Part shown: positions 7,743 through 62,899 of the stretch, one piece after another | How the letters are laid out: every line of letters starts with the position of its first letter | How positions within the stretch are numbered: the first letter of the stretch is position 1 | Position numbers and translations under genes: made by a program | Assembly (NCBI GenBank): GCA_902760805.1 | Contig: CACWHY010000007.1 | Coordinates: 9,588-73,587, forward strand | Source: Ruminococcus flavefaciens | GTDB taxonomy: Bacteria > Bacillota > Clostridia > Oscillospirales > Ruminococcaceae | Reading direction: 5' to 3' | DNA length: 64,000 nt | Notes under the pieces: model-generated | The model's input: only the letters and a program-made list of their open reading frames with translations | Told to the model about the DNA's origin: nothing | Database searches by the model: none

Positions 7743-7766
7743 AAATGAAAAAGGCAAGGTGTCAGA

Positions 7767-8519: not shown

Positions 8520-8526
8520 CCAGATG

Positions 8527-8551: not shown

Positions 8552-8567
8552 TTGTGAGGTGTTGGAA

Positions 8568-10637: not shown

Positions 10638-10671
10638 AAGGTAAGCAATAAATGTCTGTACACAATAAAAA

Positions 10672-10708
10672 CGGTGCTATGAGGGAACTCGCAGCACCGC
10701 CTTTTTTT
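10672..10708 (+). terminator. intrinsic terminator after the P-type ATPase gene
   Basis: cggtgct...agcaccg forms a 7-bp stem, followed by CC and TTTTTTT. Confidence 0.6.
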
Positions 10709-10764
10709 ACTCTATCAATGATATATCCTGAGAAAGATCCACGGTGCGAAGCATTGTTATCTGA

Positions 10765-10793
10765 TTGACTTTTTCGGCGCTCAGATGTATAAT
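10765..10793 (+). promoter_or_regulatory. sigma-70-type promoter of the YjbR-EVE/DUF5131 pair
   Basis: TTGACT-17 nt-TATAAT. Confidence 0.55.
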
Positions 10794-10833
10794 GATTACA
10801 GAAAATACTTGTCAGAATGTGAGCTGAGTTATC

Positions 10834-11586
10834 ATGAAAACTATGCGTGAAGAAGTATTCGGATATATGCAAAAGAAGTACAAAGCAAAACCGGAATATC
10901 TGTGGGCAAGATTTCCTGAATATGCTGTCTTTCGCCACGCTGATGATCAGAAATGGTTTGGGATCGTGATGAACATATCCTATGATAAGATCAACAGGGA
11001 TAAAAGCGGTATGGTGGACGTACTGAATGTCAAGCTCGATGACATTCTCCTGCGTGACTTACTGGTACAGCAGGACGGTTACTATGTGGGCTATCATATC
11101 AGCCGTGGAAACTGGATCTCTATCGTCCTGGACGGCACAGTTCCATTTGATGCGATCACAAATCTGATAGATGTGAGCTATAACGTGACGGCTTCTAAAA
11201 AGACGAAGCAAAAAATAAGGCCGCCAAAGGAGTGGCTGATACCCTCAAACCCGAAATACTATGACATCGTTCACGCCTTTGATAATGCTGATGTGATCGA
11301 CTGGAAGCAGGGCGCAGGGATCAAGAAAAATGACACTGTTTTTCTGTATGTCGGCGCACCTGTGTCGGCTATTCTTTACCGGTGCAAGGTCACAGAAGTA
11401 GATATACCTTACGATTATCATTCATCCGGGCTTACGATCACCAAGCTGATGAAGATCAAACTGATAAAAAGATACAAGCCTGAGCAGTTTACATTTGAAC
11501 GGTTAAAAACAGAGTATGGCATTTTTGCTGTCAGAGGTCCGAGAGGAGTTCCGAATAGCCTGAGTGCTGCGCTGAAAGGAAAATAA
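10834..11586 (+). CDS. MmcQ/YjbR-family domain fused to a PUA-like (EVE-type) domain
   Basis: The N-terminal half matches the YjbR pattern: PEYLWARFPEYAVFRHADDQKWFGIVMNI, VLNVKLDD and GYHISRGNWISIVLDG. The C-terminal half reads WLIPSNPKYYDIVHAF..IDWKQGAGIKKNDTVFLYVGAPVSAILYRCKVTEV, which resembles EVE/PUA-like reader modules. The second call is less certain. Confidence 0.65.
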   Translation: MKTMREEVFGYMQKKYKAKPEYLWARFPEYAVFRHADDQKWFGIVMNISYDKINRDKSGMVDVLNVKLDDILLRDLLVQQDGYYVGYHISRGNWISIVLDGTVPFDAITNLIDVSYNVTASKKTKQKIRPPKEWLIPSNPKYYDIVHAFDNADVIDWKQGAGIKKNDTVFLYVGAPVSAILYRCKVTEVDIPYDYHSSGLTITKLMKIKLIKRYKPEQFTFERLKTEYGIFAVRGPRGVPNSLSAALKGK

Positions 11587-11587
11587 T

Positions 11588-12457
11588 ATGCACGATATCT
11601 GGAATCCCTGGCACGGGTGTATCAAGAAAAGCGAGGGCTGTGACCATTGCTATATGTATTTTCTTGACAAGATGAGAGATCAGGACGGCTCAAATATATA
11701 CCGGACTAAGGCAGGCTTCAACTACCCGATACAGAAAGACCGCAAAGGAAATTACAAGATAAAAAGTGGAGAGCAGATAAGAGTTTGCATGACCTCGGAT
11801 TTCTTTCTTGCCGAGGCAGATGAGTGGCGTGATGAAGCATGGGAGCTTATGAAGATACGCAGCGATGTGATATTCTTTCTGCTGACAAAACGCCCCGAAC
11901 GTGTGGCGGAGCATCTCCCGAAAGACTGGGGCGACGGCTGGGATAACATCTTTTTTAATGTGACAGCCGAAAACCAGCGGCGTGCAGACGAGCGTATCCC
12001 CATACTGTTTGAACTCCCTTTTAAGCACAAGGGCGTGATGTGCGCTCCATTCATCGGTCAGGTCAGTATGAGAAAATATCTTGAGACTGGACAGATCGAG
12101 CAAGTTCTCTGCGACGGCGAGAATTACGACGGCGCAAGACCCTGTCATTACGATTGGGTGAAGCTCCTTCGGCAGGAATGTGTGGATAACAATGTGACAT
12201 TTGTATTCTGCGGAACAGGACGGCGCTTTGTCAAGGATGGAAAACTCTACAAGCTGGAGGGTAATATCCAGTCGCAGCAGGCAAGAAAGTCGGGTATGAG
12301 CTTTCGGGGGAAGCCGATACATTTTGACTTGTATGACAGCCTTGGATACCCTGTCAGAGATGAGGACAGATACAAGCCTGTATTCAGAGAACGCTGTGAG
12401 ACCTGCGGTATGCAGATGTGCTGTAATGGGTGCAGTAACTGCGGAAAGTGTGAATAA
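11588..12457 (+). CDS. DUF5131 (phage Gp37/Gp68) family protein with a Cys-rich C-terminus
   Basis: The N-terminus IWNPWHGCIKKSEGCDHCY is characteristic of the family. The C-terminus is CETCGMQMCCNGCSNCGKCE. The gene starts 1 nt after the previous stop. Confidence 0.75.
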   Translation: MHDIWNPWHGCIKKSEGCDHCYMYFLDKMRDQDGSNIYRTKAGFNYPIQKDRKGNYKIKSGEQIRVCMTSDFFLAEADEWRDEAWELMKIRSDVIFFLLTKRPERVAEHLPKDWGDGWDNIFFNVTAENQRRADERIPILFELPFKHKGVMCAPFIGQVSMRKYLETGQIEQVLCDGENYDGARPCHYDWVKLLRQECVDNNVTFVFCGTGRRFVKDGKLYKLEGNIQSQQARKSGMSFRGKPIHFDLYDSLGYPVRDEDRYKPVFRERCETCGMQMCCNGCSNCGKCE

Positions 12458-12539
12458 TAGCAGTTTAACGGCCAGCTGATCGAAAAGAGAGATCATGGCC
12501 TGTGGGGAACGGAGATCAGGTGCGCCAATAGGCTAAGGC

Positions 12540-13979
12540 TTACTGAACAGGATCATTTACGATACCCACAAACAGCGGCAGTCCTGTCTCGCTCATGATC
12601 TCAAAGATAAACGGTCTGTCCAGCTTGAAGTCCACATGATCTTCAGGAACGCCTGCACCTTCATAAGCCATGATCGTTAGAGAAGCCGCTTTGCAGCCCT
12701 CCTCGTCAATGGTAACTCTTGTATCTTGCTCTGCTTGACTCAGAAAAACACGCTCTGTATCGGTCAAAGGCGTAAAATTGGATCTTCCTGCATCAAAAAT
12801 ATCGGTAATGCCAAGCGCATTCAGTCCGGCACGCAGGTCTATTTTGGAAGAAACGTCAAATTTCGGAACAGACATATCAACGATCACATACTTGTTGTTC
12901 GGATAGTCCCAATTACTGAGCATAAGCTCTTTGACCTGTTCATCATTCAATAGATCGTCAGGTGAATGACCCTCGTCAGGAAGTATCAGCTTCATGTGAC
13001 CGTTATTTTCGAGCTGTAAGCTGACCGATGAGAAATGCTCTCCCCAACAATATCCCATATCTCTCTCTGAGTTCATGAAGTCACATTCGACATCACCGCC
13101 GACCGCATGAAATACGCCCTTTTCAGTATTTTCTGGCAAGAACTTGTTATTCCATTTTCCACTATAATTAACAGTAGAAGCAAGTGTCAGCAGCATTTCT
13201 GGATCCATTTTTATATCCGATACATAGTTTTCAAGAAGTCCGTCTGTCTGCTCATTCATCCAATCTTGCAACATCTTATTGTAATCATCAGATACAGGAT
13301 TACCAGTATACACAGATGAATAGTAAGTGTCGGCAAGTGTATCCACCGTATCCTGCTTATAATCGGCGTTACTGTTCGTCCAAAGAGAATTGGCGAGGAT
13401 ACATTTGGCCATACCATCATCCATATAATTCGCCAGCCAGATAGATCTCGAATGTGACCGCAGAGTATCAATATCTCCCTGACCAAGCACATCGAGTATC
13501 TGCTGTCTGCTGCTTCCGTCAGTTATCTCAGCCGACATACCAAGTGCCATATACAGGCTTAACGGAGAATATACAATGTTTTCACTCTCGGCTCCTGTTA
13601 GAAATGTGTTCGCTGTATCAGAAAAAAACGTGTCAAAGCCGTCTTTGTATCCTGCCGGTTGATCTCTTAACGCTTGTTTTGCATCGTTCCATTGTGTTAA
13701 AGCATCTTGATCCATTTCATCAGGATACATAGGCATTTCGGGATATGCTGCCGCTGCAAGTAACATCGCATTGCTGCCGACCTTGTCAGAAGGAGAGATC
13801 ACAGTATCATCACCTGTTTTCGGGAGAATAGCAATACAGGCAATGACCGCCGCAGCACATACTCCGCCCAGAGCAGTCCACTTGATAATGCTGCTCTTTT
13901 TCTTTTTGGCAGTCAGTTCAGGAACGAGTTTTTCATCTGTATCACCGATCACATCAAGAAGAATATCCTTGTTTTTCAT
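12540..13979 (-). CDS. membrane-anchored serpin with an anti-sigma-like N-terminus
   Basis: Short cytoplasmic N-terminus, then Lys-rich stretch, then TM (IIKWTALGGVCAAAVIACIAILP). The rest is serpin-like, ending in hinge/RCL DEEGCKAASLTIMAYEGAGVPEDHVDFKLDRPFIFEI. Its ATG overlaps the sigma gene stop (ATGA). Confidence 0.85.
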   Translation of the reverse strand: MKNKDILLDVIGDTDEKLVPELTAKKKKSSIIKWTALGGVCAAAVIACIAILPKTGDDTVISPSDKVGSNAMLLAAAAYPEMPMYPDEMDQDALTQWNDAKQALRDQPAGYKDGFDTFFSDTANTFLTGAESENIVYSPLSLYMALGMSAEITDGSSRQQILDVLGQGDIDTLRSHSRSIWLANYMDDGMAKCILANSLWTNSNADYKQDTVDTLADTYYSSVYTGNPVSDDYNKMLQDWMNEQTDGLLENYVSDIKMDPEMLLTLASTVNYSGKWNNKFLPENTEKGVFHAVGGDVECDFMNSERDMGYCWGEHFSSVSLQLENNGHMKLILPDEGHSPDDLLNDEQVKELMLSNWDYPNNKYVIVDMSVPKFDVSSKIDLRAGLNALGITDIFDAGRSNFTPLTDTERVFLSQAEQDTRVTIDEEGCKAASLTIMAYEGAGVPEDHVDFKLDRPFIFEIMSETGLPLFVGIVNDPVQ

Positions 13980-14527
13980 ACGCCTACACCTTCCTTTTCT
14001 AAGTAAACTCTGAGTTTATCCCGAATACGCTGTAATATCATTTTGACAGCGCCCTCAGAAATGCCATTCCGTTTTGCTATCTCAGCTACAGGCATCATGT
14101 ACCAGTAACGCAGGAGAAATATCTTTCTGTTTTTGTCGGGGAGACTGCGAAGAAAGCTGTCCATAAGCTCCTTTAGTGCGAGCCTGTCCTCAATGGGAGT
14201 ATCTTCACCGATACATTCTCCCAGTTCGTCAAGACATAATGCAACTTGTCCGCCGCCATATTTTTTTGATCTATCCTTGCGGTACTTGTCGATCGCAAGA
14301 TTACGGGTGATCTTACCAAAGAATACCGTTAATCGGCTCGGCTTTTCAGGGGGCATAGTATTCCAAGCACGAAGCCAGGTATCATTAACGCATTCCTCTG
14401 TATCCTCTGCTGAGTGCAGAATGTTGTTCGCAATGGTACTGCAATAACCGCCGTATTTCGTCTTGCTTTCTTTTATTGCAGATCCTTTTCTTTGCCAGTA
14501 AAGCTCTATGATATGAAGATCTTCCAT
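13976..14527 (-). CDS. RNA polymerase sigma-70 family (ECF-like) sigma factor
   Basis: Region-2-like ECVNDTWLRAW and region-4 HTH PVAEIAKRNGISEGAVKMILQRIRDKL. The start MEDLHII is preceded by GAGGAGG. Confidence 0.85.
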   Translation of the reverse strand: MEDLHIIELYWQRKGSAIKESKTKYGGYCSTIANNILHSAEDTEECVNDTWLRAWNTMPPEKPSRLTVFFGKITRNLAIDKYRKDRSKKYGGGQVALCLDELGECIGEDTPIEDRLALKELMDSFLRSLPDKNRKIFLLRYWYMMPVAEIAKRNGISEGAVKMILQRIRDKLRVYLEKEGVGV

Positions 14528-14612
14528 AGCGCACCTCCTCGATGCCCCTTCACCCATATAGACGAGATCCATATTGCTCAGGTAACGGTAATTTTGAAAA
14601 AAATCTATGATC

Positions 14613-14641
14613 ATTATATCACAGATAACACGAATACGCAA
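14613..14641 (-). promoter_or_regulatory. candidate sigma-70-type promoter of the sigma-serpin operon
   Basis: The minus strand reads TTGCGT-17 nt-TATAAT. Confidence 0.45.
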
Positions 14642-14654
14642 TTCCCCAAAAGGG

Positions 14655-14683
14655 TTGACACTTCACGGTAAATATGGTAAAAT
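14655..14683 (+). promoter_or_regulatory. candidate promoter of the AraC/GyrI-MutS-like operon
   Basis: TTGACA-17 nt-TAAAAT. Confidence 0.5.
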
Positions 14684-14778
14684 AAATGAAAATTACCCAG
14701 AAAATGTGAGCACAAAAAGTCGGGCAGGATCGGCTGTGATGTGATATACTGGTGTTACAGCGGAGGGAAGTGAGCGCT

Positions 14779-28680: not shown

Positions 28681-30303
28681 TCAGAGACCGGCGTCCCACA
28701 TTTGCAGAGCCAGAGCGTCCATTCCGTCAACTCCGTCGCCTGTATCGTGAACGTCAGCGTTTTTCAGTCCCTCCTCAGTAAGGGGATACTTTTCCGGAAG
28801 AGCGATATACTGGAGAACAGCCACAGCATCGCTCAGGTCGGTCCTGCCGTCGCAGTTAGCGTCGCCGCTTGCCGGAGCAGCAGCCATGTCCGGAGCTACC
28901 TCGCCGGAGGAGTACCTTTCCCTGAGGTCTACAAGGTGCTGGCCTTGCTCAGCAGAAGAGGGGATATGGCCATTGTCACGCTTGAAATACCTGAGAAGGA
29001 TATTTGCGTCGTAGATGTCTACACAGCCGCTTTCGTTGAAGTCGGCGATTTCCTTGATGTGGTCGGTGATATCCGTTGGCACGAAGGGAACGATGTGATT
29101 CTGCTCATAAATTGGAGCGTACAGGGTCTGGATAATGTCGATGTAGTCGAAATAGTCGAAAACTCCGTCGCCGTTCAGATCCTTTTCCAGCTCGCCGCTG
29201 TCCAGCTTTGCAAAGATCGGCACCTCTTCCTCGGTGGGGATGATCTCCTCCCTCAGATAAGTGGCACGAGCCTCCTCCATGTATTCGCAAAATCTGCCAA
29301 CAGCCTCTGCTCCGTCTGTTGAGTGGAACTGATAGCCCTCCACAGCCTCCAGGATCTCCTCAGTAGTGGGGAGACTGCCGTTTTTGTAAAGGTAGAAAAT
29401 GGTGTAGCTTATGTTGGCGCTGGATGACGGAACAGCCCAATGCGGATTAGCCGAGTGCTCACGGATCTTGTCCATGTAGGACTGGTCGAACACTGAGAGA
29501 GCCTCAAACATCTCCTCGGGGTGTGTCTCGCCGCCAAAATAGCCGTATTTTTCCCTGACCTGTGCCAGTGAAGCGTCATAGATCTCGTTGTAATGGAAGA
29601 TCTCGCAAAGGTCGCATATATCCAGCTCACCGTTGTCATTTGCATCGACTAAAATGTCGTTTTCCTGGATATATTCTATGAAACTCAGCTCATCTCCTGT
29701 GAAGTCACGCCACTCCTCCGCATAAGCCTTAGCAGGTAAGATCGCAGCGAAGGTCAGGACCGCTGAAAAGAATGCAGCATACTTTTTCATATATTCTTCA
29801 TCTCCTTCATTCAACTCTTGGCTGGGAGCAGTGGTCACCTCAGGCAGCTCCGGGAGAAAGCTCTCCGTGGGGAAGATCTCCTCCGGCGGCTCTGTATCAG
29901 GGCTATCCGGAAGGAGCTCCTGCTGCGGCGGCACAACTGGCAGCTCAGCCTTGTCGTTTTCCTTATTCTCGTGGAAGGCAGGCTCTGTTTTGTCTGGAGC
30001 AGTCACGTTTTGCTCAGGGCTTGCCGCCGTGGTCACTGCCGGAGCCGAAGATCCCGGCTCCCTCTCATCTGTCCCCACGGAAGGCTCCTCAGTGGCTAAA
30101 GCAGCAGTAGGCTCAGGCATTCTCCGCTCAGGCGGCCTGAGAGCGGGATCTTTCCCTGCGAAAACCGCCAGCAGGAAAGCTCCGCACACCGCAGCCGCAG
30201 CCCCGGATACTCTCCGGAACAACACACGCCTCCGGCGCTTTTCGGCCTCCGCCCGATCACGGCGCTCAAGAACGGCCGCTGCCATTTCCCTATAGTCCCG
30301 CAT
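28681..30303 (-). CDS. anti-sigma-like membrane protein fused to dockerin/EF-hand-repeat modules
   Basis: N-terminal Arg-rich segment plus TM (GAAAAVCGAFLLAVFAG), then a Pro/Glu-rich linker and an internal signal-peptide-like segment at res 172-195. Ca-binding repeats follow (DANDNGELDICD, DLNGDGVFDYFD, DFNESGCVDIYD). The C-terminus carries a canonical dockerin (DANCDGRTDLSDAVAVLQYI ... DTGDGVDGMDALALQMW). The start overlaps the sigma gene by 14 nt. Confidence 0.7.
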   Translation of the reverse strand: MRDYREMAAAVLERRDRAEAEKRRRRVLFRRVSGAAAAVCGAFLLAVFAGKDPALRPPERRMPEPTAALATEEPSVGTDEREPGSSAPAVTTAASPEQNVTAPDKTEPAFHENKENDKAELPVVPPQQELLPDSPDTEPPEEIFPTESFLPELPEVTTAPSQELNEGDEEYMKKYAAFFSAVLTFAAILPAKAYAEEWRDFTGDELSFIEYIQENDILVDANDNGELDICDLCEIFHYNEIYDASLAQVREKYGYFGGETHPEEMFEALSVFDQSYMDKIREHSANPHWAVPSSSANISYTIFYLYKNGSLPTTEEILEAVEGYQFHSTDGAEAVGRFCEYMEEARATYLREEIIPTEEEVPIFAKLDSGELEKDLNGDGVFDYFDYIDIIQTLYAPIYEQNHIVPFVPTDITDHIKEIADFNESGCVDIYDANILLRYFKRDNGHIPSSAEQGQHLVDLRERYSSGEVAPDMAAAPASGDANCDGRTDLSDAVAVLQYIALPEKYPLTEEGLKNADVHDTGDGVDGMDALALQMWDAGL

Positions 30304-32662: not shown

Positions 32663-33844
32663 ATGAAGAGTTTCGTCAAAAGAGCAGCTGCTACAGCCGT
32701 GGGCTGTACAATGCTCGTGTCGTCTACAGGAATGACCGCTTCGGCGGTGGGAATGACCTATCCTGCTAGCGATTCCTATAAGAGCGGCGTTTACTTTAAG
32801 AATATTTCCGCAGTTCAGCTTACAGGAGATCAGCGTGTTGACATCGTGGCAGTTGCGCAGTCTCAGCTGGGCTATCATGAGGGCAGCAACGCCAATGACC
32901 TTTCCGGAAATTCCAACGGCTCCGGAAACTTCACAGAGTATGGCAAGAGAGCCGGAAACGTGAGCATGGGCTGGTGTGCCGCATTTGTCTCTTGGTGCGC
33001 AGACCAGGCCAGAGTCCCGTCAAGCATCATCAAGCGCCAATATACGGCCGATAACATCACCAAGCAGTCCAAGACCGGACTCTTCGGCGGCACATTCAAG
33101 GCCTACGGTACATATATCCCAAAGCCCGGCGATATCGTATACTGGGATACCAATGAGCCTCTGAACAACAATTCCGACCACGTTGAGATAGTCGTTGCGG
33201 TCAGCGGCTCGACTATCACCTCAATCGGCGGAAATTCCTCAGATAAGGTCAAGACCCACACTGTGGATCTTTCTTCCAGCGACGGCTTCTCGTATTTCCA
33301 CATTTTAGGCTTTGAGGTGCCGAATTATACAAGTTCTGCGGCTGCGACTACAACGACTACGACAGTCACAACGACAGTCACAACGACTACGGAAACGACA
33401 ACTACTGTTCCCGTGACGACAGAGCCGCCTTTTGAGCCTGAATACTCCTACGGAGATGTGGACGGCGACGGAACTGTAGACGCATCAGACGCTTCACTGC
33501 TCCTAGCCGAGTACGCTGCACGTCAGACAAATACCGCTAACGAGATTGCTGAAGAGGCCTCTCAGTATGCCGATATCGACGGCGACGGCTTCGTAGATGC
33601 AACTGACGCATCTATCGTTCTGCAATACTACTCTTATGTGCAGACCGGCGGCGATTCGGCTCTGGCCGATTACATGGAGAACATTTACTCCGCAGAGCCT
33701 GAGACAGAGGACCCGACTGAGGAGGAGCCTCCTGCCCAGCCTTCTGAGGAAGAACTTGCAGACCGACCCTCCGACCAGGACAGCGAAACTGAGCTGATTG
33801 AGGACAAGCCTGAGTTGAACACTGAGGAACAGCTCCAGGAATGA
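32663..33844 (+). CDS. secreted CHAP-domain (peptidoglycan amidase/peptidase) protein with a Thr-rich linker and a dockerin
   Basis: Signal peptide, CHAP catalytic Cys context GWCAAFVSWC and His context SDHVEIVVAV. Linker TTTTTTVTTTVTTTTETTTTVPVTTE. Dockerin repeats DVDGDGTVDASDASLLLAEYA and DIDGDGFVDATDASIVLQYYS. Acidic tail. Confidence 0.85.
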   Translation: MKSFVKRAAATAVGCTMLVSSTGMTASAVGMTYPASDSYKSGVYFKNISAVQLTGDQRVDIVAVAQSQLGYHEGSNANDLSGNSNGSGNFTEYGKRAGNVSMGWCAAFVSWCADQARVPSSIIKRQYTADNITKQSKTGLFGGTFKAYGTYIPKPGDIVYWDTNEPLNNNSDHVEIVVAVSGSTITSIGGNSSDKVKTHTVDLSSSDGFSYFHILGFEVPNYTSSAAATTTTTTVTTTVTTTTETTTTVPVTTEPPFEPEYSYGDVDGDGTVDASDASLLLAEYAARQTNTANEIAEEASQYADIDGDGFVDATDASIVLQYYSYVQTGGDSALADYMENIYSAEPETEDPTEEEPPAQPSEEELADRPSDQDSETELIEDKPELNTEEQLQE

Positions 33845-43833: not shown

Positions 43834-43870
43834 AAGGATCCCGATACATTTGTACCGGGATCCTTGTTTT
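43834..43870 (+). terminator. intrinsic terminator (possibly bidirectional) between convergent operons
   Basis: 10-bp stem aaggatcccg...cgggatcctt followed by GTTTT. It lies between the glgA-HAD unit and the minus-strand cooS operon. Confidence 0.7.
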
Positions 43871-43922: not shown

Positions 43923-44246
43923 TTACGACCGATCTTTTTTGTTTAACAGAGTTTCCTTCAGCAGATCGGACGGATCCTTTATGAGCAGATAGACTATCCA
44001 TACTACCAGAGCCAGTGCGATCACTGCCATTCCAAGAAATGTATCATTGAGCATATCCTTTGCCGAAGGTGTAAAGTATTCTGCACCGACCTCAAGGTAT
44101 TCGACTACACCGTCGACAAGCCACATCAGCGAAGCTCCCCAGAACATATAGAGCAGAACACCGATCTTCAGCTCTCTTGCCTTGGAGCTAGTATACCATT
44201 TCACCGTGGAAACTGCGGCTGCGATCATTGTGATAAGAAGTGTCAT
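43923..44246 (-). CDS. small integral membrane protein, paralog of the upstream gene
   Basis: 107 aa with 3 hydrophobic segments. It shares FWGAS and ML-N-D patterns with the neighbouring gene. Its start overlaps the upstream stop by 4 nt. Confidence 0.5.
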   Translation of the reverse strand: MTLLITMIAAAVSTVKWYTSSKARELKIGVLLYMFWGASLMWLVDGVVEYLEVGAEYFTPSAKDMLNDTFLGMAVIALALVVWIVYLLIKDPSDLLKETLLNKKDRS

Positions 44247-44635
44247 GCTGCTGCACCTGCCTTGCTTTTTTCTGTTTTCTCAGAGCCGATGATCTTATCC
44301 GCAGCGACCGCCAATACGCCCCATACAGCGGTAACGAGTATTGCCATTGCCGAGCCTGATGTGGCCATTTCGTGGAGCATTTTCACAGTCTCTGCCGGGT
44401 CGTTTGCAGCCGTCAGGAAGGGGAAGAATGGTGAGATCTCACCATGCCATAGGTGTTCAAACGCAAGCAGTCCGGAGCCGCCCCACAGCATTCCGTTGAG
44501 CCATTTCAGCTTTTCAGATAGGCGGATCTTATTATCGGTGGATTCATGATCGGAGTTAGCCTCTGATCTTTTTACTGCCTTTTGAATGATAGTTGTAACT
44601 GCCGCTTCTGCTGCCGGTACTATAAAACAAGCCAT
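44243..44635 (-). CDS. small integral membrane protein (unknown family)
   Basis: Start set at MACFIVP, 6 nt after GGAGGAA. 130 aa with hydrophobic segments and an LWGGSGLLAFEHLWHGE motif. Confidence 0.5.
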   Translation of the reverse strand: MACFIVPAAEAAVTTIIQKAVKRSEANSDHESTDNKIRLSEKLKWLNGMLWGGSGLLAFEHLWHGEISPFFPFLTAANDPAETVKMLHEMATSGSAMAILVTAVWGVLAVAADKIIGSEKTEKSKAGAAA

Positions 44636-44651
44636 TTTACATTCCTCCGTT

Positions 44652-46748
44652 TCATTTATCCCAGCCAAGAGCTTTTCTCTTGGCTTTCATATCAGCTACT
44701 ATCTTTTCGCCCAGCTTGACAGGATCTGTGTCAACGTTCATGGAAGATCCCAGGGTCTCAAGAGTGCCGTATTTCAAAAACTCGATAACATTCTTTGAGC
44801 CGTATATCTGTGCTTCAACACAGTGATAGGAGCTTATGCCGTTAAGTCTAAATCCAAGTGCAGCGTCGATGCCCTTTTCATTTCCCCATTCGGGAGAAGA
44901 AAAAGCAAAGGGCAATTCTGACATTTTATGCCCTAAAGCTCCTGCAATACCGGCGAATATCCCTGAGGAGCGTGTGTTGTCGATACATTCGCCAACGTGC
45001 CAAACAGGAGGAAGATCGGGCTTTAGGAACTCTCTTAGGCTGTCTCCGGCCTTTTCATTTCCCGATACCGCACAGTATCCCAATTTCATCAGCGGGAATG
45101 AAGCACAGCCGTTTGAAAGGATAAGAACATTGTTCTTCAGTAAAACATCTGCAACATCAACGATACATTTTTCATAAAGTACCTTCGGATTGTTGCATCC
45201 CACCATATTTACTATACCGAGTATGCGGCCGTCCTTGATCGCATCGGCAAGGGGCTGCATACTTCCGAAGCGCTTGTGGATATACTCCACCGAGAAACCC
45301 ACCTCTGCTTCGACCTCATAGGGCGGTATGTAAACAGGTATGCCCTTTCTAGCCTCAAAGCTCTCTATTGCACGGCGGACGATCTTTTCGGCAAGAGCCT
45401 TTGTCTCGCCGATATTGGAGTGGTGATGATCGTATTCGTAGCGTTCAGCTCCGGGAAGTCTTGCCGATTCGCTGGTCGTTACAACAGTTGTCTTAAAGCA
45501 GCGAGCTACTTCCATGATCGAGGGGAATACGTCCTGAACATCTGCCACCCAAAGATCCAGAGCGCCTGTTCCGAGAACGAGCTCGGCAGAGACAGCATTC
45601 GACAGCGGAACAACTCCTGCATACCTGTACATAGCCGACAGACCCGAACAGCATATGCCATAAAACTTTATTCCCTTAGCTCCCTTTGATTTGGCAAGCT
45701 CGATCAGGTCCTCACGCTTGCCGGCCTCAACGATCTGACTTACAAGAAGCGGCAGATGACCATGAACAGCGATGTTCACATATCCCTTTTCGAGGGCACC
45801 GATATTGACTTTCGATGTAACTCTGTCGCCCACGCCGAAGAGACTGTCCGTAGCAATAGAGGCTCCTACAACTCCCGAAAATGTGAAAGCAAGTCCGCAT
45901 CTTAGGAATTGCTGCATTACCGAACGCCAGTCTCCGTCAGTTGCACAGCCCGACTTATGGTAAGCCTCAAAGACCTCATGATAAGCACTTACAGGCAGTA
46001 TATCAAGATCCTTCCATACCTCCTGCCGTTCGGGCACAGCGCAGGCCGAAATGGTCTTGTATTCACCGGGAACAGTTCTCGAAAGGTCATCAAGCAGGGC
46101 ATCAGCCAGATCTCTTGCAACGTTTTTGAGCTGACGATTTTTCTGCTTTATACCAAAAGCCTCCGCAGTCGCCCTGATCTTCTGTTCGCCCAGTATGGGA
46201 ACATCCAGCTTGCCCTCAGCAGCCCATTTCAGTGCGAGCATGACCTCTCTAGCGTGCATACCGTGCTGTGCTGCACCAGCCGCCGCCGACCGCAGAAGAT
46301 TTCTTGCAACGATCAGATCGGCGTCCGCACCACAGACACCTTTCGGGCTTTTTGCTGTTACACGGCATGGACCCATATTACAGATCTTGCAGCAAATACC
46401 TGCAAGTCCGAAATTACATTGGGGCTTCTGCTTATCAAAACGGTCAAAGGCGGTGTCGATACCGAGCTGCTCCATTCGCAGAAGAAGCTCTCTGACGGCA
46501 GGGTCGGGGGTCTGTTCGATAACATCCTGCTTTGAAGGAAAAGTCTTTCTGTATTCCGAAACGGCATTCATATAGTCCTTGATGAATGCCTGAGGATCAT
46601 CAGCTTCGCTCTCGCCATGGCTTGCCTTCAAAATGACCGTAGGGATACCGTGTTCGTCGAAACCGATCAAATTTCTGTGTGAGTGGATATGCGCAGGGGC
46701 GCTGCTCTCCTCGTGTGAGTGGTGGTGCTTGTGTTCATGTTCGCTCAT
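44652..46748 (-). CDS. cooS: Ni-dependent anaerobic CO dehydrogenase catalytic-subunit homolog with a His-rich N-terminal extension
   Basis: B/D-cluster motif CNFGLAGICCKICNMGPCRV...GVCGADAD. Downstream CODH-like motifs AVHGHLP, GICCSG, VGCNNP, SNGCAS and VGECIDN. The N-terminus is SEHEHKHHHSHEE..HIHSH. The ATG at 46748 has better RBS spacing than the ATG at 46754. Confidence 0.85.
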   Translation of the reverse strand: MSEHEHKHHHSHEESSAPAHIHSHRNLIGFDEHGIPTVILKASHGESEADDPQAFIKDYMNAVSEYRKTFPSKQDVIEQTPDPAVRELLLRMEQLGIDTAFDRFDKQKPQCNFGLAGICCKICNMGPCRVTAKSPKGVCGADADLIVARNLLRSAAAGAAQHGMHAREVMLALKWAAEGKLDVPILGEQKIRATAEAFGIKQKNRQLKNVARDLADALLDDLSRTVPGEYKTISACAVPERQEVWKDLDILPVSAYHEVFEAYHKSGCATDGDWRSVMQQFLRCGLAFTFSGVVGASIATDSLFGVGDRVTSKVNIGALEKGYVNIAVHGHLPLLVSQIVEAGKREDLIELAKSKGAKGIKFYGICCSGLSAMYRYAGVVPLSNAVSAELVLGTGALDLWVADVQDVFPSIMEVARCFKTTVVTTSESARLPGAERYEYDHHHSNIGETKALAEKIVRRAIESFEARKGIPVYIPPYEVEAEVGFSVEYIHKRFGSMQPLADAIKDGRILGIVNMVGCNNPKVLYEKCIVDVADVLLKNNVLILSNGCASFPLMKLGYCAVSGNEKAGDSLREFLKPDLPPVWHVGECIDNTRSSGIFAGIAGALGHKMSELPFAFSSPEWGNEKGIDAALGFRLNGISSYHCVEAQIYGSKNVIEFLKYGTLETLGSSMNVDTDPVKLGEKIVADMKAKRKALGWDK

Positions 46749-46765
46749 GATCATGTCTCCTCAAA

Positions 46766-47536
46766 TCAAATATAATACTCGATAAAGCCTTCTGTTTTCA
46801 TATTGAAAAGTTCAAATATCTTATCACGGACGTATAAAAAGTCATCGCTCGTTCTGTCACGATGAGCTCCCAGCGGTACCTTGACGATACTCTTTATCCT
46901 GCCGGGATCTGCCATCATAACAACTATCCTGTCGGCGAGGAATACCGCCTCCTCAATATCGTGGGTAACGAAAATGATCGTCTTTTTTTCCTCCCTTGAA
47001 ATACGGAGGATATCCTCCTGGAGCTTCATTCTTGTGATAGCGTCCAGTGCTCCGAAGGGCTCATCCATAAAAATAATATCCGGGTCAACTGCAAGACCTC
47101 TTGCTATTGCCACTCTTTGCTGCTGACCGCCTGAAAGCTGCTTGGGGTAACGCTTTTCATAGCCTGAAAGTCCCACAAGCTCCAGATATTTTTTTGAGAT
47201 CTCAGCACGTTTTTCCTTTGGCACCTTCTTTGACTCAAGTCCAAGCTCAACATTTTTCAGAACAGTTCTCCAAGGGAGCAGGCCATAATTCTGGAAGATC
47301 GTTATATTGCTCAGAGAAGGCTCTGTGACTTCTTTTCCGCCGATCCTGACAGTTCCGCTGCTCACTTTCTCAAATCCGGCAAGAGCATTGAGCAGAGTGC
47401 TTTTGCCGCAGCCCGACGGTCCGAGCAGACAAATGAACTCTCCCTTTTCGATGTCAAGGGATACATGATCCAGGGCGGTAAATCTTTTTCCGTCCTGCAC
47501 GAAATCCTTGCAGGCATCTTTTACTTCGATGTACAT
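46766..47536 (-). CDS. ABC transporter ATP-binding protein (NitT/TauT family)
   Basis: Walker A GPSGCGKST, signature [14 protein letters not shown] and Walker B IIFMDEPFGALD. The start ATG overlaps the permease stop (TAATG). Confidence 0.88.
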   Translation of the reverse strand: MYIEVKDACKDFVQDGKRFTALDHVSLDIEKGEFICLLGPSGCGKSTLLNALAGFEKVSSGTVRIGGKEVTEPSLSNITIFQNYGLLPWRTVLKNVELGLESKKVPKEKRAEISKKYLELVGLSGYEKRYPKQLSGGQQQRVAIARGLAVDPDIIFMDEPFGALDAITRMKLQEDILRISREEKKTIIFVTHDIEEAVFLADRIVVMMADPGRIKSIVKVPLGAHRDRTSDDFLYVRDKIFELFNMKTEGFIEYYI

Positions 47537-48306
47537 TACTCCGCACCTCCCCATGATCTGAGGATCGCCTTTTCGATCAGTTTAAGTGCTCCGTCAAGCA
47601 GTATGCCTATGAGACCTATGACAAGGATAGTCGCAAGCAAAATATCTGCACGGATATTATTTCTTGCATCGATTATCTGATAGCCAAGACCTGACTGAGC
47701 ACCTACCATCTCGCCTGCAACAAGGAATATCCATGCTGTTCCCAGGGCAAGATGTATACCGTTTGCTATCTGTGGGAAAGCCGCCGGAAGTATCACCTTC
47801 CATGTCAGTGAGGGCTGCTTTATCCCGAAATTCTTTGATACTTTCAGATATATCGGGTCGATATTCCCCACAGCTGCAACAGTTGACAGCAAAACAGGGA
47901 AAAAAGCTGCAATAAAGATGATAACGATAGCGGGAACATCTCCGATACCGAACAGCAGAACGATGAAGGGCATCCACGCTGTAGGTGAGATCGGCCTTAG
48001 AAGCTGCACCGCAGGATTTATGTACTGAAAGACCTTTGGAAGTCTGCCAAGGATAAGTCCCAGGATCACAGCAACGATCACCGAACTAAAATAGCCTGCG
48101 GCAAATCGGTACATACTTGTTTTTATGTTCTCAAACAGTTTTCCGCTTACTATCATCTCGACTAAAGCATCAAATGCCATTTTGGGAGAGGGGAACAATG
48201 CCTTATCATAGCTGCTGACATAAAACAGCAGCTGCCAGATCAATATCAGTATTGCAACTGAGATCACAACGTTTTTCAGAGAGAGTAGCCTTTTCATTGA
48301 TTTCAC
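47536..48306 (-). CDS. ABC transporter permease (NitT/TauT family, BPD-type)
   Basis: 6-TM permease with the EAA-like loop VSKNFGIKQPSLTWKVILPAAFP. Confidence 0.85.
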   Translation of the reverse strand: MKSMKRLLSLKNVVISVAILILIWQLLFYVSSYDKALFPSPKMAFDALVEMIVSGKLFENIKTSMYRFAAGYFSSVIVAVILGLILGRLPKVFQYINPAVQLLRPISPTAWMPFIVLLFGIGDVPAIVIIFIAAFFPVLLSTVAAVGNIDPIYLKVSKNFGIKQPSLTWKVILPAAFPQIANGIHLALGTAWIFLVAGEMVGAQSGLGYQIIDARNNIRADILLATILVIGLIGILLDGALKLIEKAILRSWGGAE

Positions 48307-48312
48307 GCCCTA

Positions 48313-49236
48313 TCAAAAATCGTTCTTCACAAAATCCTCATAAGCAGGAGGAGCATCCGAAAGTCCATACTCCTTGACCTTTTCAGCAAGTGTGTTGTAG
48401 ATATCCTCTGTTATTTCAAGGTCATTATAGGATATCCATTGCAGAGAAATATCAAGCACTTCATCTGACTGAGAAAGATACTTCTTCGCTACCTCTTTGG
48501 CAGCCTCTTTATCGAGCTTGTTTCCGGCCTCTTTGTAGCCTTCAACGAAAGTCTTTGCATCCTCGTAGTGCTCGTCGATGTACTTGTCGGTAAGCACCAG
48601 TCCGCAGCAAAGAGAATCCTCCCAAAGCTCCTCGGAGCTGAAAAGCACCTTTCCTGCACCAAGAGAAACGCCCATTGCTCCAAAAGGCTCTGCAACGCAG
48701 TATCCGTCTATCTGACCGCTTGCAAGTGCGGAGGGCATCTCTGTAGGAGCGAGCTCTGTGACGTTCACATCGTTTATGGTAAGTCCGGCAGTTGCAAGCG
48801 CATCGTTCAGCAGTATGTTGTGTGATGACTGCCTATGGGGGATAGCAAAGGTCTTGCCCTTAAGATCGGCGGCAGATCCGATATCATTAGAAACGATGAT
48901 AACATTTCCGTCACGGTGTCCAAGAGCAACGGCTTTCAGACCGATACCCTCCTGCTTTGACTTCATGGCAAGCTCGATCAGCACAGAAGCGCCGTCTACT
49001 CTGTTTGAGTTTAGAGCGTCAAGCAATTCAGACCATGAGCCGTATTTTACAAGCTCCACCTTCAGGCCTGAGCTTTTTTCAAGCTCCTCAGCCTCCTCCA
49101 AAACAGCCAGAGAATGAGTGATGGGTAGGTATGCGATCTTGATAGTGTTTGCATCACCGCTGTCAGTTTTTCCGCAGGATACAGCGGATAAAGCAAGTAC
49201 AGCCGAGAGTGCTGATGCAAGTATTCTTTTTTTCAT
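48313..49236 (-). CDS. ABC substrate-binding lipoprotein (NMT1/THI5-like, NitT/TauT family)
   Basis: Lipobox LSAVSC after the signal peptide. Pattern IKIAYLPITHSLAV.. is typical of aliphatic-sulfonate/nitrate-type binding proteins. The alternative start at 49242 has poor RBS spacing. Confidence 0.8.
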   Translation of the reverse strand: MKKRILASALSAVLALSAVSCGKTDSGDANTIKIAYLPITHSLAVLEEAEELEKSSGLKVELVKYGSWSELLDALNSNRVDGASVLIELAMKSKQEGIGLKAVALGHRDGNVIIVSNDIGSAADLKGKTFAIPHRQSSHNILLNDALATAGLTINDVNVTELAPTEMPSALASGQIDGYCVAEPFGAMGVSLGAGKVLFSSEELWEDSLCCGLVLTDKYIDEHYEDAKTFVEGYKEAGNKLDKEAAKEVAKKYLSQSDEVLDISLQWISYNDLEITEDIYNTLAEKVKEYGLSDAPPAYEDFVKNDF

Positions 49237-49332
49237 GTTCATTCATCCTTTCAATAATAAAACTGCTCTCCGAGGCTGATTATTTACAGCCAAGAGGTCT
49301 TTCATATTTTTCCTATAGAATTCATAGGTTTT

Positions 49333-49361
49333 ATTATACAGCATAATTATTATTATGTCAA
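49333..49361 (-). promoter_or_regulatory. promoter of the ABC-cooS operon
   Basis: The minus strand reads TTGACA-17 nt-TATAAT. Confidence 0.55.
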
Positions 49362-59981: not shown

Positions 59982-60240
59982 ATATGACAAAGACGATGAC
60001 GAAGAGGAGTACCCGCTGTCCCGATTTTCAGAGAGCCGCCGGCCGGTGTGAGGCGGTATGAGTGCTGTGGGGAAGTAGCTTCTGAGTCCTGCCGGTGAAA
60101 TCACAGTAAGCGGCGGCGTGTTCCTCACGTTACAGGGGAAGAGGCTATGCGGCCTCGCAGAGTGCGGGATCATTCCCGAATTCAGGTGGTAACACGGACA
60201 ATCGTTCGCCCTGGACCGAAAGGTCTGGGGCTTTTCTTTT
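59982..60240 (+). promoter_or_regulatory. T-box riboswitch leader (valine-specific by context)
   Basis: AGAGA box (cagagag) and a GAA-GUA-G candidate specifier at about 60075-60077. The T-box sequence is aattcaGGTGGTAacacgg at about 60180-60197. A terminator hairpin gccctggacc-gaaa-ggtctggggc plus TTTTCTTTT (60208-60240) lies directly upstream of valS. Confidence 0.8.
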
Positions 60241-60277: not shown

Positions 60278-62899
60278 ATGGCAAAGGAACTTGCAAAAGC
60301 ATACGATCCTAAGTCCTTCGAGGACAGGATCTACAAGGAGTGGAACGACAAGGGCTGCTTCAGAGCAGAGGTGGATCCCAAGAAGACCCCCTACACTATC
60401 GTTATCCCCCCTCCGAACATCACAGGACAGCTCCACATGGGTCACGCCCTGGACGAGACTCTTCAGGACATCCTTATCCGCTGGAAGAGAATGAGCGGCT
60501 ACAGCGCTCTGTGGCTCCCCGGAACTGACCACGCCGCTATCGCTACCGAGGCGAAGATCGTTGAGGCTATGCGCAAGGAAGGCATCACCAAGGAGGATCT
60601 TGGACGTGAGGGCTTCATGGAGCGTGCCTGGGAGTGGAAGAAGCAGTACGGCGGCCGTATCGTTGAGCAGCTCAAGAAGCTGGGCTCCTCCTGCGACTGG
60701 TCAAGAGAGCGCTTCACCATGGACGAGGGCTGCTCAAAGGCAGTCAAGGAGGTCTTCGTAAAGTATTATGAGAAAGGCCTTATCTATCGTGGCGAGAGGA
60801 TCATCAACTGGTGTCCTAAGTGCAAGACCTCGCTCTCTGACGCTGAGGTAACTTACGAGGATCAGGCCGGACATTTCTGGCACCTGCGCTACAAGATCAA
60901 GGACTCCGACGGCTATCTGGAGCTGGCTACCACACGTCCGGAGACTCTGCTGGGCGATACTGCTGTTGCCGTAAACCCCAACGATGAGCGCTATAAGGAT
61001 CTGGTGGGCAAGACAGTTATCCTGCCTATCGTTCACAGAGAAATCCCGATCGTTGCCGATGATTATGTTGAGATGGACTTCGGAACAGGCGTTGTTAAGA
61101 TCACTCCTGCTCACGACCCCAACGACTTCGAGGTAGGTCTGCGTCATGATCTGCCCGTTATCAACGTTATGAACGACGATGCAACTATCGTTGACGACTA
61201 TCCTGCATACGCCGGAATGGACCGCTACGAGGCCAGAAAGAAGATCGTTGAGGATCTGGAGGCTGAGGGCGCTCTGGTAAAGATCGAGGACTACAGCCAC
61301 AATGTTGGTACCTGCTATCGCTGCGGAACAACTGTTGAGCCTAAGGTGTCAACTCAGTGGTTCGTTAAGATGAAGCCCCTTGCTCAGCCGGCTATCGACG
61401 CTGTTAAGAACGGTGACACAAAGTTCGTTCCTGAGCGCTTCGACAAGATCTATTTCCACTGGCTGGACAATATCCGTGACTGGTGTATCTCCCGTCAGAT
61501 CTGGTGGGGACATCAGATCCCTGCATTCTACTGCGACGAGTGCGGCGAGATGGTAGTTACCAAGGAGGACGGCTGCAATTGTCCTAAGTGCGGAAAGCCC
61601 ATGAGACAGGATCCGGACACTTTGGATACATGGTTCAGCTCTGCGCTCTGGCCCTTCTCCACTCTGGGCTGGCCGGAAAAGACCGAGGATCTGGACTATT
61701 TCTACCCCACAAACACACTGGTAACAGGCTATGACATCATCTTCTTCTGGGTGATCAGAATGATGTTCAGCGGACTTGAGAATATGGGCAAGGCTCCCTT
61801 CGACACAGTTCTTATCCACGGCCTTGTTCGTGACGCACAGGGACGCAAGATGTCCAAGTCACTGGGCAACGGCATCGATCCCCTTGAGGTCATCAACGAG
61901 TACGGTGCTGACGCTCTCCGCTTTATGCTGGCTACCGGAAATTCTCCCGGAAACGATATGCGTTACATCGACGACAAGGTCAAGGCTGCAAGAAACTTCG
62001 CAAACAAGCTGTGGAACGCTTCACGTTTCATCATGATGAATCTTCCCGAGGACTTCGAGTTCAAGGGACTGCCTGCTGAGCTTGAGCTGGAGGACAAGTG
62101 GCTTGTGAACAAGTTCAACCAGCTGGCCAAGGAGGTCGGCGAGAACCTTGAGAAGTTCGAGCTGGGCGTTGCTTCACAGAAGATCTACGACTTCATCTGG
62201 GACGTTTACTGCGACTGGTACATCGAGCTCACAAAGCCCCGTATCCAGGCCGGCGGCGAGACCATGGCCAAGGCTCAGGCCGTTCTGGTATGGGCTATGG
62301 AGGGTATGCTCAAGCTGCTGCACCCCTTTATGCCTTTCATCACTGAGGAGATCTGGCAGGTGCTCACAGGCGGCCGCTCCATGATCATCCTGGAGACCTA
62401 TCCCACCTATGACTCCGCTATCGACTACTCCGCAGAGGAGCGTGATTTCGAGAAGATCATCGCTGCGATCAAGGCTGTCCGCAACGTTCGCACTGAGATG
62501 AACGTTCCGCCTTCGGTAAAGGCAAAGCTCTTCATCGAGACCGAGGACAAGGCTCTCTTCGAGTCCTGCGCTGTATTCTTCGAGAAGCTGGCTTCTGCCT
62601 CCGCAGTTGAGGCCGGCAGCAGCTTCAGCCACGAAAACTGCGCAAATGCAGTTACCGACACAGCCCGTATCTTCATCCCTATGGACGAGCTCGTTGACAA
62701 GGAGAAGGAGATCGCACGTCTGGAGAAGGAGAAGGCCAAGGTACAGAAGGACATCGACTTCCTGGGCGGAAAGCTGAACAATCAGGGCTTCATCGCAAAG
62801 GCTCCTGCACAGCTCATCGAGGCTGAGAAGGCAAAGCTGGCTAAGGCTCAGGAGAAAATGGCGAAGATCGAGCAGTCACTGGCTGCATTCAAGAAATAA
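60278..62899 (+). CDS. valS: valine--tRNA ligase
   Basis: HMGH (PPNITGQLHMGHAL), KMSKS (RKMSKSLGN) and a C-terminal coiled coil. Confidence 0.95.
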   Translation: MAKELAKAYDPKSFEDRIYKEWNDKGCFRAEVDPKKTPYTIVIPPPNITGQLHMGHALDETLQDILIRWKRMSGYSALWLPGTDHAAIATEAKIVEAMRKEGITKEDLGREGFMERAWEWKKQYGGRIVEQLKKLGSSCDWSRERFTMDEGCSKAVKEVFVKYYEKGLIYRGERIINWCPKCKTSLSDAEVTYEDQAGHFWHLRYKIKDSDGYLELATTRPETLLGDTAVAVNPNDERYKDLVGKTVILPIVHREIPIVADDYVEMDFGTGVVKITPAHDPNDFEVGLRHDLPVINVMNDDATIVDDYPAYAGMDRYEARKKIVEDLEAEGALVKIEDYSHNVGTCYRCGTTVEPKVSTQWFVKMKPLAQPAIDAVKNGDTKFVPERFDKIYFHWLDNIRDWCISRQIWWGHQIPAFYCDECGEMVVTKEDGCNCPKCGKPMRQDPDTLDTWFSSALWPFSTLGWPEKTEDLDYFYPTNTLVTGYDIIFFWVIRMMFSGLENMGKAPFDTVLIHGLVRDAQGRKMSKSLGNGIDPLEVINEYGADALRFMLATGNSPGNDMRYIDDKVKAARNFANKLWNASRFIMMNLPEDFEFKGLPAELELEDKWLVNKFNQLAKEVGENLEKFELGVASQKIYDFIWDVYCDWYIELTKPRIQAGGETMAKAQAVLVWAMEGMLKLLHPFMPFITEEIWQVLTGGRSMIILETYPTYDSAIDYSAEERDFEKIIAAIKAVRNVRTEMNVPPSVKAKLFIETEDKALFESCAVFFEKLASASAVEAGSSFSHENCANAVTDTARIFIPMDELVDKEKEIARLEKEKAKVQKDIDFLGGKLNNQGFIAKAPAQLIEAEKAKLAKAQEKMAKIEQSLAAFKK

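Follow-up and report, generated by a model that had tools for sequence, protein, structure and literature searches.

The subject of this analysis is a homologue of nickel carbon monoxide dehydrogenase (Ni-CODH), CooS, together with the six-gene operon that contains it, on a 64,000-nucleotide stretch of DNA, hereafter the window, from a Ruminococcus flavefaciens assembly (GCA_902760805.1, contig CACWHY010000007.1, positions 9,588 to 73,587). Genes were assigned by Pfam and NCBIfam profile scans, and the operon genes, their promoter and their terminator all lie on the minus strand. A sigma-70 promoter (TTGACA-17-TATAAT, 49333-49361), which matches at 12/12 positions and is the best in the region, precedes the gene for a substrate-binding lipoprotein (SBP) of the NitT/TauT type (48313-49242; NMT1_2, E 2.9e-37, with NCBIfam matches). 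This is followed by genes for a TauC/SsuC/NtrB-like permease (TM) of an ATP-binding cassette (ABC) transporter (47536-48306; BPD_transp_1, E 2.8e-22), the ABC ATPase (NBD; 46766-47536; ABC_tran, E 1.1e-31), the 700-aa CooS homologue (44652-46754; Prismane, E 2.9e-136), and two small membrane proteins, HP1 (44243-44635; 130 aa, no family, with the conserved motif LWGGSGLLAFEHLWHGE) and HP2 (43923-44246; 107 aa, three predicted helices). An intrinsic terminator-like hairpin with a 14-bp stem, seven GC pairs and a T-rich tail lies at 43834-43865. As read from the sequence, the permease and ATPase genes meet in a TAATG overlap whose ATG is the ATPase start, 11 nt separate the ATPase gene from cooS, 16 nt containing a GGAGG site separate cooS from HP1, and HP1 and HP2 share a 4-nt overlap (ATGA); the MACF start of HP1 is retained in 31 homologues. 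Spacing of this kind suggests that the six genes are co-transcribed. Promoter, gene order, junctions and terminator had all been described in the original prediction, made from the letters of the window without database searches, and each was borne out by the profile scans and by our reading of the sequence. Four nucleotides past the -10 hexamer lies a 17-bp palindromic, operator-like box, CCTATGAATTCTATAGG, of the form CCTA-N9-TAGG (49312-49328; strand unassigned), to which we return below.

None of the proteins that usually accompany a CODH was found in the window. Pfam scans of the remaining window open reading frames (ORFs) of at least 90 aa, leaving out a few short ORFs judged to be overlapping or antisense artefacts, gave no CooC, CooF, ACS, hydrogenase or FAD-NAD oxidoreductase (FNOR), and the ferredoxin motif CxxCxxCxxxC is absent from all 51 window ORFs, so that the absence of canonical partners claimed earlier holds for the window. 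Such partners are also missing from the recurrent neighbour families annotated in 80 related loci (described below). The impression that the block is AT-richer than its surroundings, previously gained by eye, is confirmed by computation: the GC content of the operon is 47.4% compared to 52.2% for the other window genes, and GC at third codon positions (GC3) is 48.9% compared to 62.3% (sd 9.1), with the six operon genes ranking 4th to 13th lowest in GC3 among 44 genes. Control of the operon by a riboswitch or leader was rejected after Rfam scans at gathering thresholds, which found no S-box, T-box or NiCo element 5' of the SBP gene in the window or in 12 diverse related loci.

The CooS homologue scores 455.6 bits against PF03063 and passes TIGR01702 narrowly (497.4 bits against a cut-off of 478). 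We compared its residues with those of solved CODHs by alignment, the best matches being 6T7J and 6ELQ. Residues C113, C121, C122, C125, C130 and C141 align with cysteines in both structures, and we take these, by established numbering, to be the equivalents of ChCODH-II C39 and C47 (D cluster) and C48, C51, C56 and C70 (B cluster). At the C-cluster, five of the six ligands are present, namely H333, which corresponds to His261 of ChCODH-II, and C369, C520, C550 and C590; the full canonical set (His261, Cys295, Cys333, Cys446, Cys476, Cys526) is broken at Cys333, the equivalent of which is Asp408. Conservation of the C-cluster ligands, which the original prediction had left to an alignment, is therefore found at every position except this one. 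The equivalents of His93 and Lys563 are kept, the distal proton-relay histidines His99 and His102 are replaced by Glu170 and Leu173, and Asn262 is replaced by Leu334. In addition, the protein has a DHHH loop at residues 441-444 and a histidine-rich N-terminus with 10 His within the first 36 residues.

These substitutions are those of a defined group of enzymes. Structural group B-1 is marked by an N-terminal His-rich region and by an acidic residue, Asp or Glu, in place of the second C-cluster cysteine (PMC6344411), and Glu and Leu at His99/His102, Ser or Leu at Asn262 and an extra loop containing three His are features of clade B (PMC13592312); the window CooS has every one of them. Moreover, it is 95% identical to the CooS of R. 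flavefaciens FD-1 (707 aa), in which Asp415, Glu177, Leu180 and Leu341 agree with the published numbering of the clade B enzyme RfCODH (PMC13592312). Because of this identity, and because the FD-1 numbering fits that of RfCODH, we place the window CooS in clade B, and the operon is almost certainly a clade B Ni-CODH module. The same pattern holds in the 80 homologues from the related loci. In every one Asp replaces Cys333 and Leu replaces Asn262, Glu replaces His99 in 79/80, and 79/80 have a His-rich N-terminus; the cluster ligands do not vary in any of the 80 loci.

Published work on RfCODH bears directly on what such a protein does. The recombinant enzyme oxidizes CO at only 13 mU/mg and does not reduce CO2, nitrate or bicarbonate; NH2OH is weakly reduced, although the authors term it "a rather questionable substrate", and no sulfur compound is among the substrates reported (PMC13592312). 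Nickel content is 0.2-0.5 Ni per monomer, and the cryo-EM structure shows blocked gas channels and an altered proton relay (PMC13592312). The substitutions tied to these structural changes are also present in the window CooS. The activity of this 95%-identical enzyme and the presence of Asp408 support the earlier suggestion of a role outside classical CO/CO2 energy metabolism. CooS is nevertheless no relic but is under unusually strong purifying selection, with a dN/dS of ~0.02 compared to 0.04-0.07 for the ABC genes, a constraint two to three times tighter, which argues against a vestigial protein. Synonymous sites of cooS differ by 57% from the closest relative and are saturated relative to those of Lachnospiraceae, at a dN of ~0.1 and an amino-acid identity of 85-89%. 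Recent transfer was therefore rejected as the cause of the 84-96% CooS identity seen across families, which we attribute to strong constraint combined with older transfers.

The transporter has the components of a NitT/TauT importer, namely an NMT1-type SBP, a BPD_transp_1 permease and a TauB/NtrCD-type ATPase. To our knowledge, members of the TauT/NitT family carry small anions and organosulfur compounds and are not known for metal cations. Permease and ATPase resemble TauC/SsuC/NtrB and TauB/NtrCD, the top NCBIfam match of the ATPase being the nitrate transporter ntrCD, and no NCBIfam equivalog score of the permease reaches its cut-off. The wider equivalog scores of the three components are likewise below their cut-offs (SsuA_fam, 127.5 against 163.5; TauA, 47 against 304). 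All 72 SBP homologues compared retain Cys23, the residue that follows the signal peptide, and H43, H109, H136, H141, C182, C212 and C213 are likewise invariant. Its closest solved relative is PDB 3UN6, a zinc-bound protein of S. aureus (E 1.8e-64, near full length; identity of ~47% as counted by hand from the printed alignment). One source labels a close SBP homologue "metal ABC transporter substrate-binding protein". We share with the literature the hypothesis that the transporter delivers the substrate of CooS. As a separate observation, the top NCBIfam match of the permease (47536-48306, minus strand) is SaoP of Haft's selenocysteine-assisted organometallic (SAO) ABC system, at 157 bits against a cut-off of 295. 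Membership of the SAO system was rejected, with SaoX at 68 bits (cut-off 300) and SaoA at 245 (cut-off 360) also far below threshold.

HP1 has no Pfam or NCBIfam family, its >7,900 homologue clusters are all unnamed, and its AF2 model is of low confidence and unusable (pLDDT 49.5). HP2 likewise has no Pfam or NCBIfam family, barring a sub-threshold match to Imp-YgjV (E 0.0015), and a Foldseek search of the PDB with its AF2 model (pLDDT 77.5) gave no match. A SemiSWEET/PnuC-like identity for the pair is therefore unsupported. Comparison of HP1 with HP2 by BLASTP gives nothing significant and by hhalign a weak, collinear profile match (E 0.022), so that the two may be distant paralogues. HP1 was found in ~31/80 loci and HP2 in ~25/80, mostly in Ruminococcus and other Oscillospiraceae, and in Pseudobutyrivibrio an unrelated membrane protein takes their place 3' of cooS. 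These proteins are thus lineage-specific and not universal partners of clade B CooS.

The related loci were collected by scanning one genome per species, and the 80 that were retained encode a CooS 84-96% identical to that of the window. They come from Ruminococcus, other Oscillospiraceae, Butyrivibrio, Pseudobutyrivibrio, Eubacteriaceae and [Eubacterium] cellulosolvens, and from metagenome-assembled genomes (MAGs) labelled Spirochaetales and Thermoguttaceae. The SBP gene adjoins cooS in 72/80 loci, and the ABC genes adjoin it wherever the contig permits, usually upstream and in five loci downstream. The neighbourhood that the original prediction had proposed to trace across genomes thus recurs as regards its ABC-cooS core, whereas its membrane-protein part is confined to a minority of loci. 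By contrast, the genes that flank the operon in the window (purL, glgA, and those for a HAD hydrolase, a PASTA kinase and an M42 peptidase) were found in none of the related loci. The same six genes occur at 9287-14721 of the 352-kb plasmid pRUMAL02 of R. albus 7 (NC_014825.1; locus L081), which is typed as conjugative (MOBP, MPF_T) and, as an aside, also carries tig, clpP and clpX. Copies of CooS that are 88-89% identical are present in MAGs assigned to other phyla, namely a Thermoguttaceae MAG (L045, on a 124-kb contig) and a Spirochaetales MAG (L034); in the former, cooS and its flanks have the same GC content (0.59), which speaks against a binning error and in favour of an established transfer. 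Given the GC3 shift, the unshared flanks, the conjugative plasmid and the spread over several phyla, the earlier suggestion that the operon was acquired horizontally is supported.

To describe what surrounds the module, all ORFs of the 80 loci were clustered and the recurrent clusters were annotated. MetY (O-acetylhomoserine sulfhydrylase; TIGR01326, above cut-off), found in 19 loci, is among the commonest non-core neighbours, and CysK (cysteine synthase; TIGR01139, above cut-off) also occurs in 19 loci. A LysR regulator is present in 13 loci and an Rrf2 regulator in 10, the best match of the neighbouring Rrf2 protein being CymR at 103 bits against a cut-off of 195. Further neighbours include CysE, MoaD-MoeZ/ThiF, a TusA-like protein, thioredoxin, the C-S lyase PatB, GshA (glutamate-cysteine ligase), MetQ, MetI or MetNIQ, cystine-type ABC components, and a family 2A encapsulin with a cysteine desulfurase cargo. 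When the count is confined to the full-flank loci, the 40 in which CooS has 6 kb or more on each side, MetY or CysK lies within 10 kb of CooS in 21/40, and some sulfur-related gene is nearby in 27/40. The arrangement of the cysteine and methionine genes varies by lineage and is often tight, sometimes forming one operon with CooS, as can be seen from the orders CysK-SBP-TM-NBD-CooS-MetY-LysR (L057), SBP...CooS-MetY-CysK-Rrf2 (L045), LysR-SBP...CooS-CysK (L012), HP1-HP2-CooS-SBP-TM-NBD-MetY (L073), GshA-MetY-SBP...CooS-PatB-CysK-MetQNI (L031) and MetY-SBP...CooS (L078).

Several loci carry additional genes that we record in their own right. In four Butyrivibrio loci (L071, L072, L075 and L076; for example 588-7196 of L072), a nitrogenase-like cluster composed of NifB, NifH, a CysK-like protein, two NifD/K-like proteins and a NifX-like protein is situated directly 5' of the SBP gene, and in R. 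flavefaciens FD-1 (L038, 13031-15972) the opposite strand encodes a NifD/K-like pair just past the HP2 gene. The NifD/K-like scores are far under the nitrogenase cut-offs, and these genes may encode a methylthio-alkane reductase of the MarBHDK type, as used in anaerobic sulfur salvage. In R. flavefaciens ATCC 19208 (L002, 16391-19067), the encapsulin and its cysteine desulfurase are encoded 4-7 kb 3' of the CooS operon, among genes for CysE, MoaD-MoeZ, MetY, a TusA-like protein, thioredoxin and ThiF; the pair is also present in L010 and L079. In Pseudobutyrivibrio xylanivorans (L058, 1659-2525 and 4809-7244), a small sulfite-reductase-like protein, whose best match is AsrC at 162 bits and under cut-off, is encoded a few genes upstream of the SBP-CooS operon; genes for porphobilinogen deaminase (hemC) and a uroporphyrinogen synthase/methyltransferase fusion (cobA/hemD) immediately 5' of the SBP gene suggest siroheme supply. 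Within the window itself, a gene of the Met_gamma_lyase family (PF06838; 54543-55991, plus strand) is located ~5 kb from the operon, past the genes for the PASTA kinase and two M42 peptidases, and has no CCTA-N9-TAGG box upstream.

This box suggests a link between the operon and sulfur genes at the level of regulation. Across the 1.29 Mb of related loci there are 49 matches, compared to 10.2 +/- 3.4 in shuffled sequence, and 43/49 are intergenic. It is found upstream of the SBP gene in 20/58 cases, of metY in 9/15, of cysK in 2/10 and of an Rrf2 gene in 1/8, compared to 12/459 for other genes, and these others include a MetQ-fusion SBP gene (metQ-like), a thioredoxin gene (trx) and a gshA operon. 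The relatives often have the box embedding the -35 element TTGAC or falling just after the -10 hexamer. At 49312-49328 it is the sole match in the 64-kb window and spans the likely transcription start, a location that would be typical of a repressor. A second box at the -35 element of the window promoter was considered and set aside, being degenerate here, unlike in many relatives. By its distribution the box is a putative operator common to cysteine and methionine genes, as in a CymR-type regulon, and the operon probably belongs to a cysteine/methionine regulon.

We propose a model in which the operon supplies sulfur; which protein acts as regulator, what is imported and which reaction CooS catalyses are inferred. 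When cysteine is plentiful, a repressor, probably the Rrf2/CymR-like protein encoded beside the module in other genomes, would bind the CCTA-N9-TAGG box at the transcription start and shut off the consensus promoter. Upon derepression, the TauT-type transporter would import a sulfur-containing small molecule or anion, for which a sulfonate, thiosulfate, sulfite or a linear CO2 analogue such as host-derived thiocyanate would be candidates. Low-potential electrons would enter the CODH homologue through its intact D and B clusters, and the Asp-ligated Ni-Fe-S C-cluster would reductively cleave a C-S or S-O bond without oxygen to give sulfite or sulfide. CysK and MetY would then use the liberated sulfur to make cysteine and homocysteine. 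HP1 and HP2 would be lineage-specific accessories that may form a heterodimeric membrane pair. Aerobes carry out the corresponding step with oxygenases of the TauD or SsuD type. We give even odds to this, our preferred reading, in which the operon is induced by sulfur starvation and frees sulfur for assimilation from a compound that it imports. That the importer's cargo is a sulfur compound converted by CooS seems to us plausible but somewhat short of an even chance, and we raise only tentatively the broader proposal that clade B CODHs form the catalytic core of an oxygen-independent sulfur-acquisition pathway in gut and rumen anaerobes, controlled by a CymR-type regulon and feeding CysK and MetY. 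If true, this would represent new chemistry for the CODH scaffold, taking the C-cluster beyond CO and CO2, and, if confirmed, would give strict anaerobes that lack O2-dependent desulfonating enzymes a route to scavenge sulfur in host-associated habitats. As regards the substrate, the MetY/CysK linkage and the promoter box direct attention to sulfur compounds over carbon or nitrogen oxyanions.

Several observations weigh against a sulfur-supply function. No cysteine or methionine gene adjoins the operon in the window, where the link to sulfur is a single 17-bp box, and 46/100 shuffles of the 64 kb contain at least one match to the box, so that the single match is not significant alone; its weight derives from its position and from the family-wide pattern. 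The box also has a T-N11-A core, so that a LysR-type regulator could bind it in place of an Rrf2 protein. Moreover, 13/40 full-flank loci have no nearby sulfur-related gene, and the 80 loci, all at least 84% identical in CooS and leaving out deeper clade B members (Campylobacter, Selenomonas), are phylogenetically non-independent. Finally, the four invariant His and three invariant Cys of the SBP, together with zinc-bound 3UN6, suggest a site that is metal-like rather than sulfonate-like.

This last point favours the proposal of Inoue et al. (2019) that the operon serves metal supply, in which the ABC transporter imports Ni(II) or another metal and the His-rich N-terminus of CooS captures the metal and loads the C-cluster in place of CooC, CooJ and CooT, the true substrate arriving by diffusion or another route. 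Besides the invariant SBP residues, this idea draws on the zinc with which 3UN6 was crystallised (PMC6344411), on the naming of a close SBP homologue as part of a metal ABC transporter, on the near-universal His-rich tail, on the absence of a maturase gene from the Pfam scans of the window, and on the low nickel content of recombinant RfCODH. The 3UN6 zinc may, however, stem from crystallisation, and Böhm et al. find these SBPs (~300 aa) to be far smaller than known Ni-binding SBPs. Nickel control would be expected of such a system, yet the box is common to metY and cysK. Permease and ATPase, moreover, are of a TauT/NitT lineage in which we know of no metal-cation importer. We therefore regard metal supply as unlikely, albeit a serious competitor, and even then the enzyme could have a role in sulfur metabolism. 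A different cargo, a nitrogen oxyanion, is implied if the enzyme detoxifies N-oxides or hydroxylamine in the style of a hybrid-cluster protein, reducing NH2OH or a related N-O compound. Although the ntrCD match of the ATPase and the common superfamily of CODHs and hybrid-cluster proteins (PF03063) are consistent with this, the doubts of the RfCODH authors about NH2OH, the lack of nitrate turnover and the recurrence in the 80 loci of sulfur genes, with no recurrent nitrogen-metabolism genes, render it improbable.

The remaining explanations concern the enzyme itself. It might be a genuine CO dehydrogenase, slow or conditionally activated, for detoxification or scavenging of gut CO, the low activity of RfCODH then reflecting incomplete maturation in E. 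coli. With the clade B enzyme, cyanide produces the canonical band at 2110 cm-1, the recombinant protein was low in nickel, and the window CooS keeps five of six C-cluster ligands, every cysteine of the B and D clusters, and the counterparts of His93 and Lys563. On the other hand, CO requires no ABC importer, regulation is held in common with cysteine and methionine genes, the window provides no CooF, hydrogenase, ACS or FNOR as electron acceptor, and the substitutions that accompany blocked gas channels and an altered relay in the cryo-EM structure recur here, making this possibility very improbable. Finally, a non-catalytic role, whether as a redox or metabolite sensor or as a structural relic carried along with the transporter, is hard to reconcile with a dN/dS two to three times tighter than that of the co-transferred ABC genes and with cluster ligands that are invariant in 80 loci, and we give it hardly any credence.

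Other features of the window may be noted briefly. A second block of low GC3 (0.42-0.59) at 4736-14641, which holds ABC/FtsX genes and genes for an AraC regulator, DUF6110, a P-type ATPase, DUF5131, a serpin and an ECF sigma factor, may also have been acquired. The sole Rfam match in the window is a T-box leader (59987-60216, plus strand; 115 bits against a gathering threshold of 93) directly 5' of the valyl-tRNA synthetase gene valS (60278-62899). The serpin (12540-13979, minus strand) and two dockerin proteins, one with a CHAP domain (28681-30303, minus strand; 32663-33844, plus strand), identify the host as a cellulosome-producing Ruminococcus. In keeping with a Ruminococcus sp. MAG lineage, a protein identical to HP2 is annotated in Ruminococcus sp. 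MAGs, and R. flavefaciens proteins are among the members of the 90%-identity cluster of GlgA.

The operon type is already published, and the feature itself is not new. NitT/TauT ABC components had been connected with every clade B group by Inoue et al. (2019; PMC6344411), and of the clade B operons surveyed by Böhm et al. (2026, eLife) 64% contained ABC genes and hardly any a maturase gene. The second report of Böhm et al. (2026, Angew. Chem.; PMC13592312) defines SBP, TM, NBD, CooS, HP1 and HP2 as the "canonical clade B architecture" and concludes from mirror-tree correlations that the transporter probably imports the substrate. The original prediction of an imported substrate is thus the current published hypothesis (PMC13592312, PMC6344411) and is unoriginal. 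The sulfur-regulon lead is an addition here, being absent from the most relevant papers; the main clade B papers give no sulfur link, and broader full-text searching returned nothing relevant. Katayama (2024) lists, for Megasphaera alone, a minor and separate context termed "cysteine synthase".

Among known systems, the RfCODH operon of R. flavefaciens (Böhm et al. 2026; PMC13592312, PMC13056359) has the same gene order (SBP-TM-NBD-CooS-HP1-HP2), His-rich tail, DHHH loop and absence of maturases as the window operon, which differs in belonging to another Ruminococcus species (a MAG lineage of higher GC) and in lying at a different chromosomal position; the published work mentions neither sulfur-assimilation neighbours nor a common operator. 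The group B-1 Ni-CODHs (PMC6344411) resemble the window CooS in the Asp/Glu substitution and the His-rich N-terminus, are tied to COG0600, COG0715 and COG1116, and have an SBP homologous to 3UN6, although nickel import was proposed for them whereas regulation and neighbourhood here point to sulfur metabolism. Canonical Ni-CODHs of clade F (ChCODH-II, RrCooS) belong to the same fold family and have in common with the window CooS both the D and the B cluster, His261, all but one of the five C-cluster cysteines, and the counterparts of His93 and Lys563; the window CooS differs in Asp408 for Cys333, in Glu170/Leu173, in Leu334, in an extra N-terminal domain, and in an operon without CooC, CooF, hydrogenase or ACS partners. 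ChCODH-V (clade D) and the hybrid-cluster proteins are similar in combining a CODH scaffold with an altered cluster, a carboxylate ligand and little or no CO chemistry, but the window protein belongs to a different clade, one that binds nickel and cyanide as a C-cluster does and has a dedicated importer. The transporter, in turn, is of the same TauT/NitT family as TauABCD and SsuEADCB, the sulfonate systems that serve aerobes in sulfur starvation, and the ssuABC-like system of S. aureus, although the window SBP scores under the SsuA, TauA and SaoX cut-offs and the enzyme that goes with it is a Ni-Fe-S protein sensitive to oxygen, in place of a dioxygenase or monooxygenase that depends on O2. 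Membership of a CymR-controlled, cysteine-responsive regulon, which has been demonstrated for S. aureus ssuABC (bioRxiv 10.64898/2026.05.20.726469), is what the box at 49312-49328 suggests for the window operon.

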